The position numbers were made by a program, and so were the translations under genes. Below the pieces are notes generated by a model that saw nothing but the letters and a program-made list of their open reading frames with translations, did not search any database and was not told the DNA's origin. Below, in pieces: positions 3,531-12,265 of a DNA stretch of 64,000 bases. Source of the stretch: Escherichia coli (GTDB lineage Bacteria; Pseudomonadota; Gammaproteobacteria; Enterobacterales; Enterobacteriaceae); NCBI RefSeq assembly GCF_041248615.1, contig NZ_CP158426.1. The stretch is one strand, 5' to 3'. Numbering within the stretch: position 1 is the first letter of the stretch; every line of letters starts with the position of its first letter.

Positions 3531-4312
3531 TGCTGGAAATACTCTATCAGGATGAATGGCTGGTTGCGGTAAATAAACCCTCCGGCTGGCTGGTTCACCG
3601 CAGCTGGCTGGATCGCGACGAGAAAGTAGTGGTCATGCAAACCGTGCGTGACCAGATAGGCCAGCATGTGTTTACTGCTCATCGTCTGGACCGACCAACT
3701 TCTGGTGTGTTGTTGATGGGATTATCCAGCGAGGCCGGACGGCTGCTGGCACAACAGTTTGAACAGCACCAAATCCAGAAACGTTACCATGCGATTGTGC
3801 GCGGCTGGTTGATGGAAGAAGCAGTTCTGGATTATCCACTGGTGGAAGAACTGGACAAAATCGCTGATAAATTTGCCCGCGAAGATAAAGGCCCACAGCC
3901 AGCAGTGACGCATTATCGCGGTCTGGCGACCGTAGAAATGCCGGTAGCGACCGGACGTTACCCGACCACGCGCTACGGCCTGGTGGAACTGGAGCCGAAA
4001 ACCGGACGTAAGCACCAGCTCCGTCGCCATCTTGCCCATTTGCGCCACCCGATTATTGGCGACAGCAAACATGGTGATTTACGCCAGAATCGCAGCGGTG
4101 CTGAACATTTTGGCCTTCAGCGGTTAATGCTGCATGCCAGTCAGTTGTCATTGACGCATCCTTTTACTGGCGAGCCGCTGACTATTCACGCGGGCCTGGA
4201 CGACACCTGGATGCAGGCGTTATCACAATTTGGCTGGCGGGGTCTGCTTCCTGAAAATGAAAGGGTTGAGTTCAGTGCGCCATCGGGTCAGGATGGAGAG
4301 ATAAGTTCCTAA
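3530..4312 (+). CDS. truC: tRNA pseudouridine(65) synthase TruC
   Basis: 260-aa ORF with RluA-family motifs (HRLDRPTSG); start overlaps yqcC stop. Confidence 0.85.
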
Positions 4313-6567: not shown

Positions 6568-7908
6568 ATGACGACACAATCCAGTCCTGTTATTACTGAT
6601 ATGAAAGTCATTCCGGTCGCCGGGCACGATAGCATGTTGCTTAATATTGGTGGGGCGCATAACGCATATTTCACTCGCAATATTGTGGTACTCACCGATA
6701 ACGCCGGGCATACCGGCATTGGTGAAGCGCCAGGCGGAGAGGTGATTTATCAGACACTGGTCGATGCTATTCCGATGGTGTTGGGCCAGGAAGTTGCGCG
6801 CCTGAATAAAGTGGTTCAGCAGGTGCATAAAGGTAATCAGGCAGCCGATTTTGATACCTTCGGCAAAGGTGCCTGGACTTTTGAATTGCGCGTTAATGCC
6901 GTGGCGGCGCTGGAAGCCGCCTTGCTTGACCTGCTAGGTAAGGCGCTGAATGTTCCGGTCTGCGAACTGTTGGGGCCAGGCAAGCAACGCGAGGCTATTA
7001 CCGTCCTCGGTTATCTGTTTTATATCGGTGATCGGACCAAAACCGATCTTCCTTATCTGGAAAATACGCCGGGCAACCATGAGTGGTATCAATTGCGGCA
7101 TCAGAAAGCGATGAACAGCGACGCCGTTGTGCGTCTGGCGGAAGCCTCACAGGATCGCTATGGCTTTAAAGATTTCAAACTTAAGGGCGGCGTGTTACCT
7201 GGCGAGCAAGAAATCGACACTGTTCGTGCATTGAAGAAACGCTTCCCGGATGCGCGGATTACCGTTGATCCCAACGGTGCATGGCTGCTTGATGAAGCCA
7301 TTTCTCTGTGCAAAGGGCTGAATGATGTTCTTACCTATGCCGAAGATCCATGCGGAGCAGAACAGGGGTTCTCCGGACGTGAAGTGATGGCGGAGTTTCG
7401 GCGGGCGACCGGCTTGCCCGTCGCGACTAATATGATCGCCACCAACTGGCGCGAAATGGGCCATGCGGTGATGCTCAATGCGGTAGATATTCCACTTGCC
7501 GATCCGCACTTCTGGACGCTTTCCGGTGCAGTCCGCGTGGCGCAGCTTTGCGACGACTGGGGGCTGACCTGGGGCTGCCATTCCAACAACCATTTCGATA
7601 TCTCTCTGGCGATGTTTACCCATGTGGGCGCGGCGGCACCGGGTAATCCTACCGCTATCGATACCCACTGGATTTGGCAGGAGGGCGATTGTCGCCTGAC
7701 CCAAAATCCGCTGGAGATTAAAAACGGAAAAATTGCCGTTCCTGATGCGCCCGGTCTGGGCGTGGAACTGGACTGGGAACAGGTACAAAAGGCACATGAG
7801 GCCTATAAACGTCTGCCTGGCGGTGCGCGTAACGACGCGGGCCCGATGCAGTACCTGATCCCCGGCTGGACCTTTGACCGTAAACGTCCCGTTTTCGGCC
7901 GTCATTGA
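6568..7908 (+). CDS. gudX: Glucarate dehydratase-related protein GudX (enolase superfamily)
   Basis: 446-aa ORF, clear paralog of the next ORF (shared HDSML..GAH..FTRNIV..GHTG.GE motifs). Confidence 0.85.
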
Positions 7909-7928
7909 TTTTGAAAAAGGACATAAAT

Positions 7929-9269
7929 ATGAGTTCTCAATTTACGACGCCTGTTGTTACTGAAATGCAGGTCATCCCGGTGGCGGGCCATGACAGTATG
8001 CTGATGAATCTGAGTGGTGCACACGCACCGTTCTTCACGCGTAATATTGTGATTATCAAAGATAATTCTGGTCACACTGGCGTAGGGGAAATTCCCGGCG
8101 GCGAGAAAATCCGTAAAACGCTGGAAGATGCGATTCCGCTGGTGGTGGGTAAAACGCTGGGTGAATACAAAAACGTTCTGACGCTGGTGCGTAATACATT
8201 TGCCGATCGTGATGCCGGTGGGCGCGGTTTGCAGACATTTGATTTGCGTACCACTATTCATGTAGTTACCGGGATAGAAGCGGCAATGCTGGATCTGCTG
8301 GGGCAGCATCTGGGGGTTAACGTGGCATCGCTGCTGGGCGATGGTCAACAGCGTAGCGAAGTCGAAATGCTCGGTTATCTGTTCTTCGTCGGTAATCGCA
8401 AAGCCACACCGCTGCCGTATCAAAGCCAGCCGGATGATAAATGTGACTGGTATCGCCTGCGTCACGAAGAAGCGATGACGCCGGATGCGGTGGTGCGCCT
8501 GGCGGAAGCGGCATATGAAAAATATGGCTTCAACGATTTCAAACTGAAGGGCGGTGTACTGGCCGGGGAAGAAGAAGCCGAATCTATTGTGGCACTGGCG
8601 CAACGCTTCCCACAGGCGCGTATTACCCTCGATCCTAACGGTGCCTGGTCGCTGAACGAAGCGATTAAAATCGGTAAATACCTGAAAGGTTCGCTGGCTT
8701 ATGCAGAAGATCCGTGTGGTGCGGAGCAAGGTTTCTCCGGGCGTGAAGTGATGGCAGAGTTCCGTCGCGCGACTGGCCTGCCGACCGCAACCAATATGAT
8801 CGCCACCGACTGGCGGCAGATGGGCCATACGCTCTCGTTACAATCCGTTGATATCCCGCTGGCGGATCCGCATTTCTGGACGATGCAAGGTTCGGTACGT
8901 GTGGCGCAAATGTGCCATGAATTTGGCCTGACCTGGGGTTCACACTCTAACAACCACTTCGATATTTCCCTGGCGATGTTTACCCATGTAGCCGCTGCTG
9001 CACCGGGTAAAATTACTGCTATTGATACGCACTGGATCTGGCAGGAAGGCAATCAGCGTCTGACCAAAGAACCGTTTGAGATCAAAGGCGGGCTGGTACA
9101 GGTGCCGCAAAAACCAGGATTGGGCGTAGAAATCGATATGGATCAGGTGATGAAAGCCCACGAGCTGTATCAGAAACATGGGCTTGGTGCGCGTGACGAT
9201 GCGATGGGAATGCAGTACCTGATTCCTGGCTGGACGTTTGATAACAAGCGCCCGTGCATGGTGCGTTAA
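7929..9269 (+). CDS. gudD: Glucarate dehydratase GudD
   Basis: ORF 7905-9269; probable start at ATG 7929 ([10 protein letters not shown]...), 446 aa. Confidence 0.85.
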
Positions 9270-9342
9270 GACAGAAAACCAAAACCGGCTCTTTCAGGAG
9301 CCGGTTTGAGATTACTGACGAAGTGGCTTACGGGGACGGTTT

Positions 9343-9445
9343 TCCCCTCGCCCTTTCAAGGAGAGGACCGGGGTGAGGGTAATCATTCGCACTTGCGTTG
9401 GCCTGTTCCCCTCACCCTAACCCTCTCCCCGGAGGGGCGAGGGGA
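9343..9445. repeat. GC-rich composite inverted-repeat extragenic element between convergent gudD and barA
   Basis: Two 37-38 bp copies in inverted orientation (TCCCCTCGCCC..GGGGTGAGGG at 9343-9379; CCCCTCACCC..GGGGCGAGGGGA at 9408-9445), each internally palindromic. Confidence 0.5.
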
Positions 9446-9508
9446 CTGTCTGTGCTGCTCCCAGCATTGGCATTGGACGGAACCTATTTTGACTCGACAA
9501 AACGTCCA

Positions 9509-12265
9509 TTACCCGAGAATTTTGCTGGCTTCGCGCGCTACATTATCCATCTCGTCCAACAGTTCCAGCAGCTCCGGCTCCAAATCTTCTTCTTTAGTAC
9601 CGCTACGTAGCTGTTGTTCGATCAGTTGGCAGAGATTCTTCATACGCGGCACACCGCTATAGCCGCAACTGCCATGCAGTTTATGAATCAAATCAACCAG
9701 GCCTTCCGGGTTTTCTCCAACCAGCTGTTCCTCAACTTTGTTGCGAACTTCAGGCAGGAAATCGAGTAACATTTGCAGCATATCGCGCGCTAAATCGGTT
9801 TTTCCTGCTGCCTGGCGTAGTGCCAGTTGCCAGTCGAGGGTCGCATTCGGGTTCACCACAATTTCGTTGACTTCGGGCGTCACGACGCGAGAGGAAATAC
9901 CGCTGCCAGGCTTGTAGCGCAACAACAAATTATGCAATCGCTCTTCTTCAATCGGTTTCGCCAGATAATCGCTCATCCCTGCGCCAAGCAGCTTCTCTTT
10001 TTGCCCGGCCATTGCATGCGCCGTTACCGCGATAACTGGCGTTTGTTGCTGATGGGGGAGCTGGTGGATGAGTTCGCAGGCCCGAATGCCGTCCATGTCC
10101 GGCATTTGAATATCCATTAAGATCAAATCGAACGGCATCTGTTTCGCCCGTTCAACCGCCTGATGCCCGCTATCGCAAAGTTCCACATGTTGCACCATAT
10201 CTTCCAGCAATGCGCCGATAAGTTTCAGGTTAGCGGGGTTGTCATCAACCGCCATGACTGTCATTGCCAGCTTACTTTCATCGGTTACAGGCAAAAGCGT
10301 GTTTTGTTTGTGATGACAAAATTCCGTCAGGGCAGGTAACAGGCGCGTAGGTGTTAATGGTTTCAGCAGACACGCGCCGATACCATCTTGCTTAAGTTTT
10401 TCAGCATTGACTTGTGCATGGCAAGGAAGTGCCAGCATCAGAAAATCGGTCATCGATACCGCTTTCGCTAATCGCTCATGTTGCATTGTTAGCGGCTCGC
10501 GGAAGGTCACCGCAATGCCTAATAACATCATGTCGTAATGCGCGGGAGGCAGCGCGGAGAATGTTGGGCTATAAACCACTTCCAGCGGCGTTTCACTTAA
10601 AATATCCAGCGTGCATTGCGCTGCTGCGGAGTTTGGTTCGACATAGGCCAGGCGCTTGCCGGCGAGGCACTGGGTGGATGGCCCTTCGATAATAATGTTC
10701 GGATTCAGATCGAGATTAATGTGGAACCAGAAAGTTGAACCGCGATTCGGCTGGCTATGGAACGAAATATCGCCGCCCATTTCATTAACCAGTTTTTGTG
10801 TAATCACCAGCCCCAGCCCGGTGCCACCATGACGGCGGGAAATACTGGCATCAGCCTGTCGGAAGGCCTGGAATAAGCGCGATTGATCGCGTTCAGGAAT
10901 ACCAATGCCGGTATCCCGAATCTGCACTTCAATCTGCACTTTGGTATTACTCAGCGCACGTTTTTCTACCAGAATATCAATGTTGCCATTCTCGGTGAAT
11001 TTAATTGCATTCCCTACCAGGTTAGTGATGATTTGCTGTAATCGCAGTGGGTCGCCAATTACGTTATCGGGCACGTCGCTCTTAATATTGAGCGTCAGTT
11101 CCAGCCCTTTATCGTGAGAAGAATGTGCCAGCAGGGTAACGACTTCATCCAGCGTGCTGCGTAGTGGGAATGGAATACTTTCCAGAATCAGCTTACCCGC
11201 TTCCAGTTTCGAGAAGTCGAGAACATCATTAATAATTGCCAGCAAATTATTTGCCGAACGTTCAATCGTATTCAGGTGATCGCGCTGCGTTGGTGTTAAT
11301 TCTGTTTTCAGCGTCAGGCGAGTAAAGCCAATAACACCATTCAGTGGTGTACGCAGCTCGTGTGACATATTTGCCAGAAACTCGGATTTAATACGCGCCG
11401 CTTCCTGGGCGCGCTTTTTCGCCAGATCCAACTCAACGTTCTGAATTTCCATCTGCTCCAGCGTTTCACGCAGATCGGACGTCGCCTGGTCGATATTGTG
11501 CTGCATCTCTTCGTGATAAGCAGCCAGCGACATTGCCATCGAGTTGATACCGTTTTTCAGCATATCCAGCTCGCCGAGCATAAATCCTTCCACCCGGCTG
11601 TCGAGTTGCCCGCGACGGATGCGGTCGACGGTATTCACCATATTGCGAATCGGACCGGTTACATCGCGCATTAAGCGCCAGCCAAAAATAAGCGCAATAC
11701 CGATACAAAACAGCATCATCACGCTGGAAATAAAGATCTCTTTATATTGCTGCAAGCGAACCGATTTAAGATCCAGCTCAAGCGCAATATATCCCAACAT
11801 ATTTTGACTATTTTTGGCATCGCTACTGGGCGATTCGTCGGGGGAGTAACTCTCAGAAATAATCGGTGTGCGGAGGATCATAATATCGCCGTCACGAGTG
11901 ACAGTGAGCTGGCGAGGAAACGGCACGTTGCTGCCGAGCTGCATTGATGAGGGATCAAGATGAAAATTGGAGGTGACAAAGAGTCGGTTATTTTCATCAT
12001 AAACCGAAATCGCGCGAACAATATCGGAATGGCGACGATGCAGTACGCTTATTAACTGACCGATAGATTCGCGATTTTGCAGGCTCATGCCATATTCAGT
12101 AGAAACTGCAAGCGGCTCAATAATGCTGGCTCCGGCATCTTCCAGTTGACGCTGCAAATCGTTATAGCGATGCACAACGAAAAAGATACTCAGCAATAAA
12201 CCAATAAGGACGGTCGGTGCCAGGATCAGAATCATCATGCGTGCGCGCAGGCTGTAGTTGGTCAT
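9509..12265 (-). CDS. barA: Hybrid sensor histidine kinase BarA
   Basis: 918-aa ORF with HAMP, HisKA (SHELRTPLN), receiver and HPt regions. Confidence 0.9.

Follow-up and report, generated by a model that had tools for sequence, protein, structure and literature searches.

The spacer between the convergent genes gudD and barA of Escherichia coli can hold a GC-rich composite inverted repeat, and the question raised by this locus is whether the repeat serves the two genes or simply belongs to a family dispersed over the genome. We have analyzed it in a stretch of 64,000 nucleotides of E. coli (NCBI RefSeq assembly GCF_041248615.1, contig NZ_CP158426.1), called the window here. An earlier description made without database searches (the sequence-only reading) had suspected a dispersed extragenic repeat family that it could not name, and had offered bidirectional termination, mRNA stabilization and binding of nucleoid proteins as roles. 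As judged from sequence comparison, it is essentially certain that the repeat is a pair of BoxC elements, a family already catalogued and known since the 1990s. The reading that we prefer, with a probability of roughly 80%, is that this is an ordinary, slightly decayed BoxC pair that rides as a passenger in a permissive spacer between convergent genes and is unlikely to have a dedicated function.

Structure and identity of the repeat

The gene names gudD and barA were taken from RefSeq records that are 100% identical to the window across positions 9000-9800. The repeat is fully intergenic; it lies behind the hairpin that follows gudD and ahead of the barA stop codon (stop codons at 9269 and 9509), as the sequence-only reading had placed it. 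By a repeat search, inverted arms with a length of 40 nt and a complementarity of 78% were found at 9343-9382 and 9406-9445, with a gap of 23 nt. The core elements inside these arms are 28 nt apart (Table 1), in agreement with the two GC-rich inverted elements, 28 bp apart, that had been reported.

The single-stranded DNA of the composite has folding energies of -31.1 kcal/mol (plus strand; z = -4.2) and -32.3 kcal/mol (minus strand; z = -5.1), a stability that was not reached by any of 200 shuffles. When up to three mismatches were allowed, the 37-nt pattern of the right arm had one match in the 64-kb window against 0.00 expected. Because of this match number and these fold scores, the composite is not explained by chance; the pair at gudD-barA is the only BoxC pair in the window. 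RNA folding, proposed earlier as a check, has shown pronounced structure in the spacer RNA of either strand (z = -4.8 for the barA strand and -6.8 for the gudD strand), mainly by pairing of one arm with the other. The claim that each arm is able to form a hairpin of its own has stood only in part: single arms do self-fold, at -7.4 and -10.5 kcal/mol, yet shuffled sequences with their biased composition fold just as well (z = -0.6 and -1.0).

Table 1. Positions of features in and around the gudD-barA spacer, numbered on the window.
Feature	Position	Strand	Basis or remark
gudD stop codon	9267..9269	+	ORF 7905-9269; RefSeq annotation of identical records
Intrinsic-terminator-like hairpin, outside the repeat	9282..9307	-	TGGTTTTCTG follows on the minus strand; just past the gudD stop
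Allele-specific spacer segment	9312..9491		Alignments with REP-allele and BoxC-allele strains
Whole BoxC composite, ~118 bp	~9338..9456		Arms, spacer and short flanks aligned with four K-12 pairs
Type B arm, degenerate: CCCTCGCCC-TTTCA-AGGAGAGGA-CCG-GGGTGAGGGT	9345..9380	+	Comparison with K-12 TMECO no. 10
Spacer, 28 nt, TAATCATTCGCACTTGCGTTGGCCTGTT	9381..9408		Kept in three of four aligned K-12 pairs
Type A arm (TTA second loop, one mismatch) CCCTCGCCCCTCCGGGGAGAGGGTTAGGGTGAGGGG	9409..9444	-	Identical to TMECO no. 23
barA stop codon	9509..9511	-	ORF 9509-12265; RefSeq annotation of identical records

The family was reached by a full-text literature match to the 12-mer CCGGGGTGAGGG, which led to two papers (PMC4666352 and PMC5100583). 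Table 1 of Holder et al. 2015 (PMC4666352) lists 23 TMECO elements in K-12 MG1655, and the same paper states that TMECO corresponds to the earlier BoxC (Bergler 1992; Bachellier 1999) and to the PIT elements of Hoyne and Maher, a synonym used by Hoyne et al. 2000. Box C was first described at the envM (= fabI) region (Bergler et al. 1992, as cited in PMC4666352). The two motifs that Kaplan et al. 2016 (PMC5100583) described as prone to form G-quadruplexes, HPG1 with a TTA loop and HPG2 with a CC loop, are the same two sequences, and published BoxC copy numbers in K-12 range from 23 to 32.

On the minus strand, the sense strand of barA, the right arm has exactly the sequence of a type A element of K-12, TMECO no. 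23; its alignment over about 45 nt with the K-12 fabI(envM)-ycjD element shows 2-3 mismatches. The plus-strand sequence of the left arm (CCCTCGCCCTTTCAAGGAGAGGACCGGGGTGAGGGT) matches the type B element no. 10 (CCCTCGCCCTTTCAGGGAGAGGGCCGGGGTGAGGGT) at 34 of 36 positions; the two differences are G-to-A changes, both at the ends of block 2. The arms show the 34-37-nt motif CCCTC[G/T]CCC - loop - GGGAGAGGG - TTA (in type A) or CCG (in type B) - GGGTGAGGG. Strain GON1437 carries an intact block 2 (GGGAGAGGG) at the same locus, its whole type B arm being GGGAGAGGGGCGGGG. Since two guanines have been lost from its type B arm, the copy in the window is a degenerate version that is already decaying. 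A search of 9000-9800 against Rfam with a permissive E-value has given only sub-threshold eukaryotic miRNA and snoRNA models, the best being miRNA models with 15-22 bits against gathering scores of 58-105.

BoxC elements of K-12 often stand in close opposite-strand pairs, always of one type A and one type B element, and the inverted A+B pair has been published at five K-12 loci (PMC4666352, PMC5100583). The pair in the window fits this rule: its B element is on the plus strand, its A element is on the minus strand, and the two face each other head to head. Four K-12 pairs have this orientation (ygfF-gcvP, alx-sstT, hrpB-mrcB and fepB-entC), and we aligned the composite with them; the fifth, lldD-trmL, has the reversed, tail-to-tail order. 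The spacer (about 27 nt, consensus TAAnTnTTCGCACCnGTGCTGGCCTGTT) is conserved in three of the four, that of hrpB-mrcB being shorter and divergent. The aligned pairs also share short flanks, GGTTTTC at the left end and GACTGnCTGnGC at the right end, and diverge beyond them. In the window, the left flank GGTTTTC is followed by the type B arm, the conserved spacer and the type A arm, and the unit closes with the right flank GACTGTCTGTGC. Because the spacer is conserved as well as the arms, the composite of about 118 bp is one repeat unit; the hrpB-mrcB strain without the unit is missing about this extent.

Copies, alleles and instability

For a copy search, the 121-nt query 9335-9455 was compared with 28 Gb of sequence at E <= 1e-3, and the resulting counts are lower bounds. 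At least 78,473 matching places were found in 5418 of the 5426 complete E. coli genomes, nearly all of them chromosomal, with a median of 16 per genome; a genome identical to the query across the 121 nt has 14 places. Single-copy status, which would have argued for an idiosyncratic terminator, is therefore not what was found, and the suspected dispersed extragenic family is BoxC. An identity of at least 99% to the version in the window over this query is reached by about 32 records, and 143 fall in the band of 95-99%; among the matches listed, no RefSeq gene lies under the repeat. Naming BoxC settles the finding, since it makes the repeat a catalogued one and no new regulatory structure.

The unit is a minority allele at gudD-barA. 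Region 9000-9800 is covered to at least 80% by a single match in 189 of the 5426 complete genomes (about 3.5%), while those sampled from the remainder match 78% of it in two pieces, with a nearly equal total length. K-12 belongs to the roughly 96% of complete E. coli genomes in which the spacer holds instead an unrelated segment of about 172 bp with a REP element (GCCGGATAAGGCGTTAACGCCGCATCCGGCA; in K-12 at about 3888-3918 of the extracted locus). Two different extragenic repeats, a BoxC pair and a REP, are accordingly alternative alleles of one spacer, and no similarity between them was recognizable in alignments across 9312-9491. Among the aligned strains, the BoxC allele is present in the window, GON1437 and MS 69-1, and the REP allele in K-12, EC10 and MINF_1D. 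EC10 carries the REP allele, yet its flanks are 99.8% identical to those of the window, and GON1437 has the BoxC allele together with a different variant of the neighboring hairpin. These combinations indicate that an allele can pass from one background to another, presumably through recombination between flanking sequences. Near-identical flanks with both alleles offer a natural experiment on the effects of the repeat at the barA 3' end.

Since the BoxC pair is absent here from about 96% of the genomes, it cannot be required for expression of gudD or barA. We infer from the absence of evidence for one that the pair lacks a dedicated role for either gene.

According to PMC4666352, the only positive association of the motifs is a higher sequence variability between strains around them, and a "palindrome effect" has been described there, in which pairs lose their middle and a hairpin is left. 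We have found concrete examples of this instability in the form of recurrent internal deletions. At gudD-barA in MS 69-1, an internal deletion of 70 bp has fused the beginning of the B arm with the final two blocks of the A arm; at hrpB-mrcB in 07_3337, a 64-nt deletion between direct GGGAGAGGG blocks has left one perfect hairpin; and at alx-sstT in EH01-18-04-A, 75 nt are deleted between direct CCCTCTCCC blocks. In these three independent deletions of 64-75 nt, each between the pair's own direct 9-mers, a pair has become a single two-block hairpin. They fit slipped-strand or microhomology deletion between direct repeats, by which the DNA would misalign on its own repeated CCCTC/GAGGG blocks and the pair would collapse to a single hairpin.

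Other rearrangements were observed at related loci. At hrpB-mrcB of HM670 the whole unit is missing; ACCAAAGC stands in place of about 110 nt there, and no duplication could be seen. At alx-sstT some strains, such as SW07164, carry an unrelated GC-rich segment of about 440 nt (about 260-700) where K-12 has the BoxC pair and the last part of alx. In roughly 2400 of 5425 genomes the similarity to K-12 at ygfF-gcvP breaks off at a distance of about 35 nt from the pair, and beyond the break, at about 423-425 of the extracted K-12 locus, the ygfF side is missing or different; a break so near the pair places the repeat at the edge of a variable region.

Mobility, transcript ends and DNA structure

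The first explanation to be weighed against the passenger reading concerns origin and is compatible with it: the pair of about 118 bp could be the replicating unit of a REPIN-like non-autonomous mobile element, whose single-stranded DNA hairpin is moved by some enzyme, and solo BoxC elements could be its decayed remnants. We regard this as possible, though unlikely on balance. In its favor, pairs always join two different arms around a conserved spacer, the collapse from pair to hairpin and the loss of the whole unit in HM670 are both seen, and the copies are dispersed at loci that vary between strains, with 63 loci in 56 strains (PMC4666352) and only a minority allele at gudD-barA. Against it, the motif has no association with transposons, phages or plasmids (Holder et al., PMC4666352). 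The gudD-barA locus shows a replacement of 180 bp and no clean insertion, a clean empty site being absent among the strains sampled. No target-site duplication is seen at hrpB-mrcB either, although REP-type elements likewise lack one.

Further evidence on mobility comes from other taxa. We scanned contigs from outside the enterobacterial genomes with the pattern GGGTGAGGG-N20-40-CCCTCACCC, which asks for the two inner blocks of the pair and nothing outside them. The matches listed comprise at least 120 loci, all from other taxa, including Ca. Contendobacter, Afipia, Bradyrhizobium, Pseudolabrys, Polaromonas, Mitsuaria, Archangium and a few others; more than 30 of those listed are from one Gemmataceae genome, on a single 2.3-Mb scaffold. 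Among 130 matches listed, a CCCTCTCCC-loop-GGGAGAGGG hairpin lies within 75 nt on the left in 94, on the right in 107 and on both sides in 80, against a background of 0.01 per kb in the same loci. Blocks 2 and 3 are linked, among the matches listed, either by 3 nt as in E. coli or by an inserted mini-hairpin, whose stem differs between taxa and which often has a GAA-type triloop; the two arms of a pair usually have different links. The three-block, paired and asymmetric architecture is thus present in many copies, among the matches listed, in Planctomycetota, in Alpha-, Beta- and Gammaproteobacteria and in Myxococcota. Rfam at the gathering threshold gave nothing on the elements of 14 related loci. 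In a Ca. Contendobacter metagenome-assembled genome, a YrlA (Y RNA-like) gene above the Rfam gathering threshold (352-489) lies about 240 nt from a BoxC-like pair, a proximity that is probably coincidental.

The recurrence of one paired asymmetric architecture in multiple copies in unrelated phyla favors a mobile unit, whereas the search for a mover and its traces around the listed loci speaks against it. With one E. coli RayT sequence as query, phmmer found no relative at E <= 1 in 6550 ORFs around 120 listed loci. All-against-all clustering of the neighboring ORFs of the listed loci gave no obvious candidate for a recurrent neighbor across taxa, the clusters being only large paralogous families of Gemmataceae and spurious high-GC ORFs. 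In 61 Gemmataceae copies there was no signal of target-site duplication (2.52 observed against 2.48 with permuted partners).

The single motif has been reported in more than 260 genomes (Holder et al., PMC4666352), and neither Holder et al. nor Kaplan et al. (PMC4666352, PMC5100583) describe a paired, asymmetric unit for species other than E. coli. The three 9-nt blocks are strikingly conserved across phyla; this counts against a purely passenger reading, since it speaks for some selective or mechanistic constraint that pure junk would not explain, and the paired architecture across phyla hints that this constraint is shared. We put forward, tentatively and as a rather unlikely idea, that the pair rather than the single 36-nt motif is the functional unit of an old cross-phylum hairpin element, spread or maintained in a REPIN-like manner by a host or element activity that acts on single-stranded DNA. 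Such a unit might be built from a first arm of three blocks, optionally with an inserted mini-hairpin, then a spacer and a second arm that differs from the first, a composition that we hold just as tentatively. Solo BoxC elements and single hairpins might then be its decay products, again as a doubtful suggestion.

The second explanation, that the pair acts as a bidirectional terminator or 3' mRNA stabilizer for gudD and barA, had been raised by the sequence-only reading and in our judgment is improbable. Its position between convergent genes and its very stable RNA hairpin on both strands would suit such a role, and the REP element that occupies the same spot in K-12 points in the same direction, since REP elements are well established to stabilize upstream mRNA. 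A consensus scan of 9200-9600, however, found no promoter-like site and a single terminator-like site, the hairpin read from 9307 to 9282 on the minus strand, in the barA direction. No terminator-like site was found in the composite itself (9338-9456), and no T-run follows it on either strand. That about 96% of the genomes lack the repeat at this locus also speaks against a stabilizing or terminating role. According to PMC4666352, the elements behaved as neither promoters nor terminators in the tests of Hoyne and Maher 2002, left RNA polymerase unaffected and did not block replication in vivo. As for the supposed binding of nucleoid proteins, nothing in our sequence analysis or in the BoxC papers points there.

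The hairpin ahead of the repeat, reported earlier at 9286-9310, is indeed terminator-like (Table 1) and is probably the barA terminator. It is present in both alleles; GON1437 and MS 69-1 retain the stem, with one pair being G-T, and differ in the loop. This post-gudD hairpin occurs in at least three sequence variants (CTCTTTCAGGAG, CTCTATCTGGAG and CTTCATAAGAAGT), and the retention of the stem in all of them fits a functional bidirectional terminator. Because this conserved hairpin lies between gudD and the repeat, gudD transcripts probably stop, for the most part, before reaching the repeat. On the passenger reading, the likely consequences of the pair are structural, a proneness to deletion and a changed barA RNA: transcripts of barA would probably read through the composite and end near 9282, which would place the pair in the barA 3' untranslated region, where arm-to-arm pairing would give a long imperfect hairpin. 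In the K-12 allele, a weak terminator-like hairpin followed by TTTTTATGAC comes directly after the barA stop (3825-3841 of the extracted K-12 locus). This site is missing from the counterpart in the window, 9469-9508. The barA 3' untranslated region may consequently be much longer in strains with the BoxC allele, and the BoxC and REP alleles could differ in how the barA 3' end is formed.

The third explanation holds that the pair is a non-B DNA switch, either an intrastrand purine triplex or an alternation of G-quadruplex, hairpin and duplex, which regulates replication or transcription locally; to this also we give only a small chance. Consensus oligonucleotides of the G-rich strand of types A and B form a stable intrastrand purine triplex by CD and NMR, with 18 imino signals and a Tm of 70-82 C (PMC4666352), and HPG motifs switch between G-quadruplex and hairpin depending on ions, as followed by CD (PMC5100583). 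The type A arm of the window, which has an identical sequence, is intact, and the four runs of at least three G with short loops between them that define the HPG motif can be read from it (GGGG-AGA-GGG-TTA-GGG-TGA-GGGG). In the type B arm, however, only two such runs remain (AGGAGAGGA-CC-GGGG-TGA-GGG), and with AGGAGAGGA as block 2 it has two added mismatches; the two substitutions in the central block have probably weakened any triplex of this arm. Moreover, the triplex reverts to duplex once the complementary strand is present, it was undetected by in vivo DMS footprinting, and BoxC shows no correlation with the function of neighboring genes or the distance to them (PMC4666352).

Lastly, that the repeat encodes a small protein is effectively refuted: the ORF 9306-9662 is open for 118 codons and its translation contains PLTLTLSPEGRGD, a peptide motif also present in translations of other BoxC copies, but the ORFs that hold it in those copies have different sequences around it, while the ORF in question starts with TTG, runs antisense into barA and has no Pfam family above threshold, no RefSeq annotation and no promoter-like site. 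The motif is the repeat itself translated in one frame, and the sequence-only reading was right to call such ORFs artefactual. ORFs across this repeat should stay unannotated. A YmjE-like Pfam match (E = 0.079; 13.4 bits against a cut-off of 27) was below threshold. It raised the question whether the YmjE family itself derives from translated BoxC copies, but ten K-12 BoxC translations gave no YmjE match and there is no ymjE at fabI-ycjD, and the match was rejected as chance.

Comparison with known repeats and terminators

The preferred reading, a BoxC pair carried as a passenger, can be set beside four known systems. The composite resembles intrinsic terminators in being a GC-rich hairpin downstream of converging genes, but it has no U-tract, its stem is far longer and it is repeated genome-wide. 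It resembles REP and BIME sequences as an extragenic GC-rich palindromic repeat, and a REP occupies the same intergenic region in K-12, but the BoxC pair has no sequence similarity to REP. REP elements have about 35 nt and one stem, are bound by known proteins and, unlike BoxC, have the cognate transposase rayT.

REPINs were reportedly described by Bertels and Rainey in 2011 as doublets of REP sequences that form hairpins. The composite is like them in having two short inverted repeats and a short spacer that together make one long hairpin (fold z = -4.2 / -5.1), in being dispersed in extragenic space and in having solo copies that resemble remnants. It is unlike them in that the BoxC sequence is unrelated to REP and that no associated RAYT-type transposase was found with a single RayT query at loci of other taxa; to our knowledge, none is known for BoxC.

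With BoxC itself the agreement covers the three-block layout CCCTCNCCC / GGGAGAGGG / GGGTGAGGG, with TTA or CCG in the second loop, as well as the intergenic position, the multiple copies and the inverted A+B pair with a spacer of about 27-28 nt. The copy in the window differs from the K-12 set in its locus, since gudD-barA is not among the 23 listed K-12 copies, and in the two G-to-A changes in block 2 of its type B arm.
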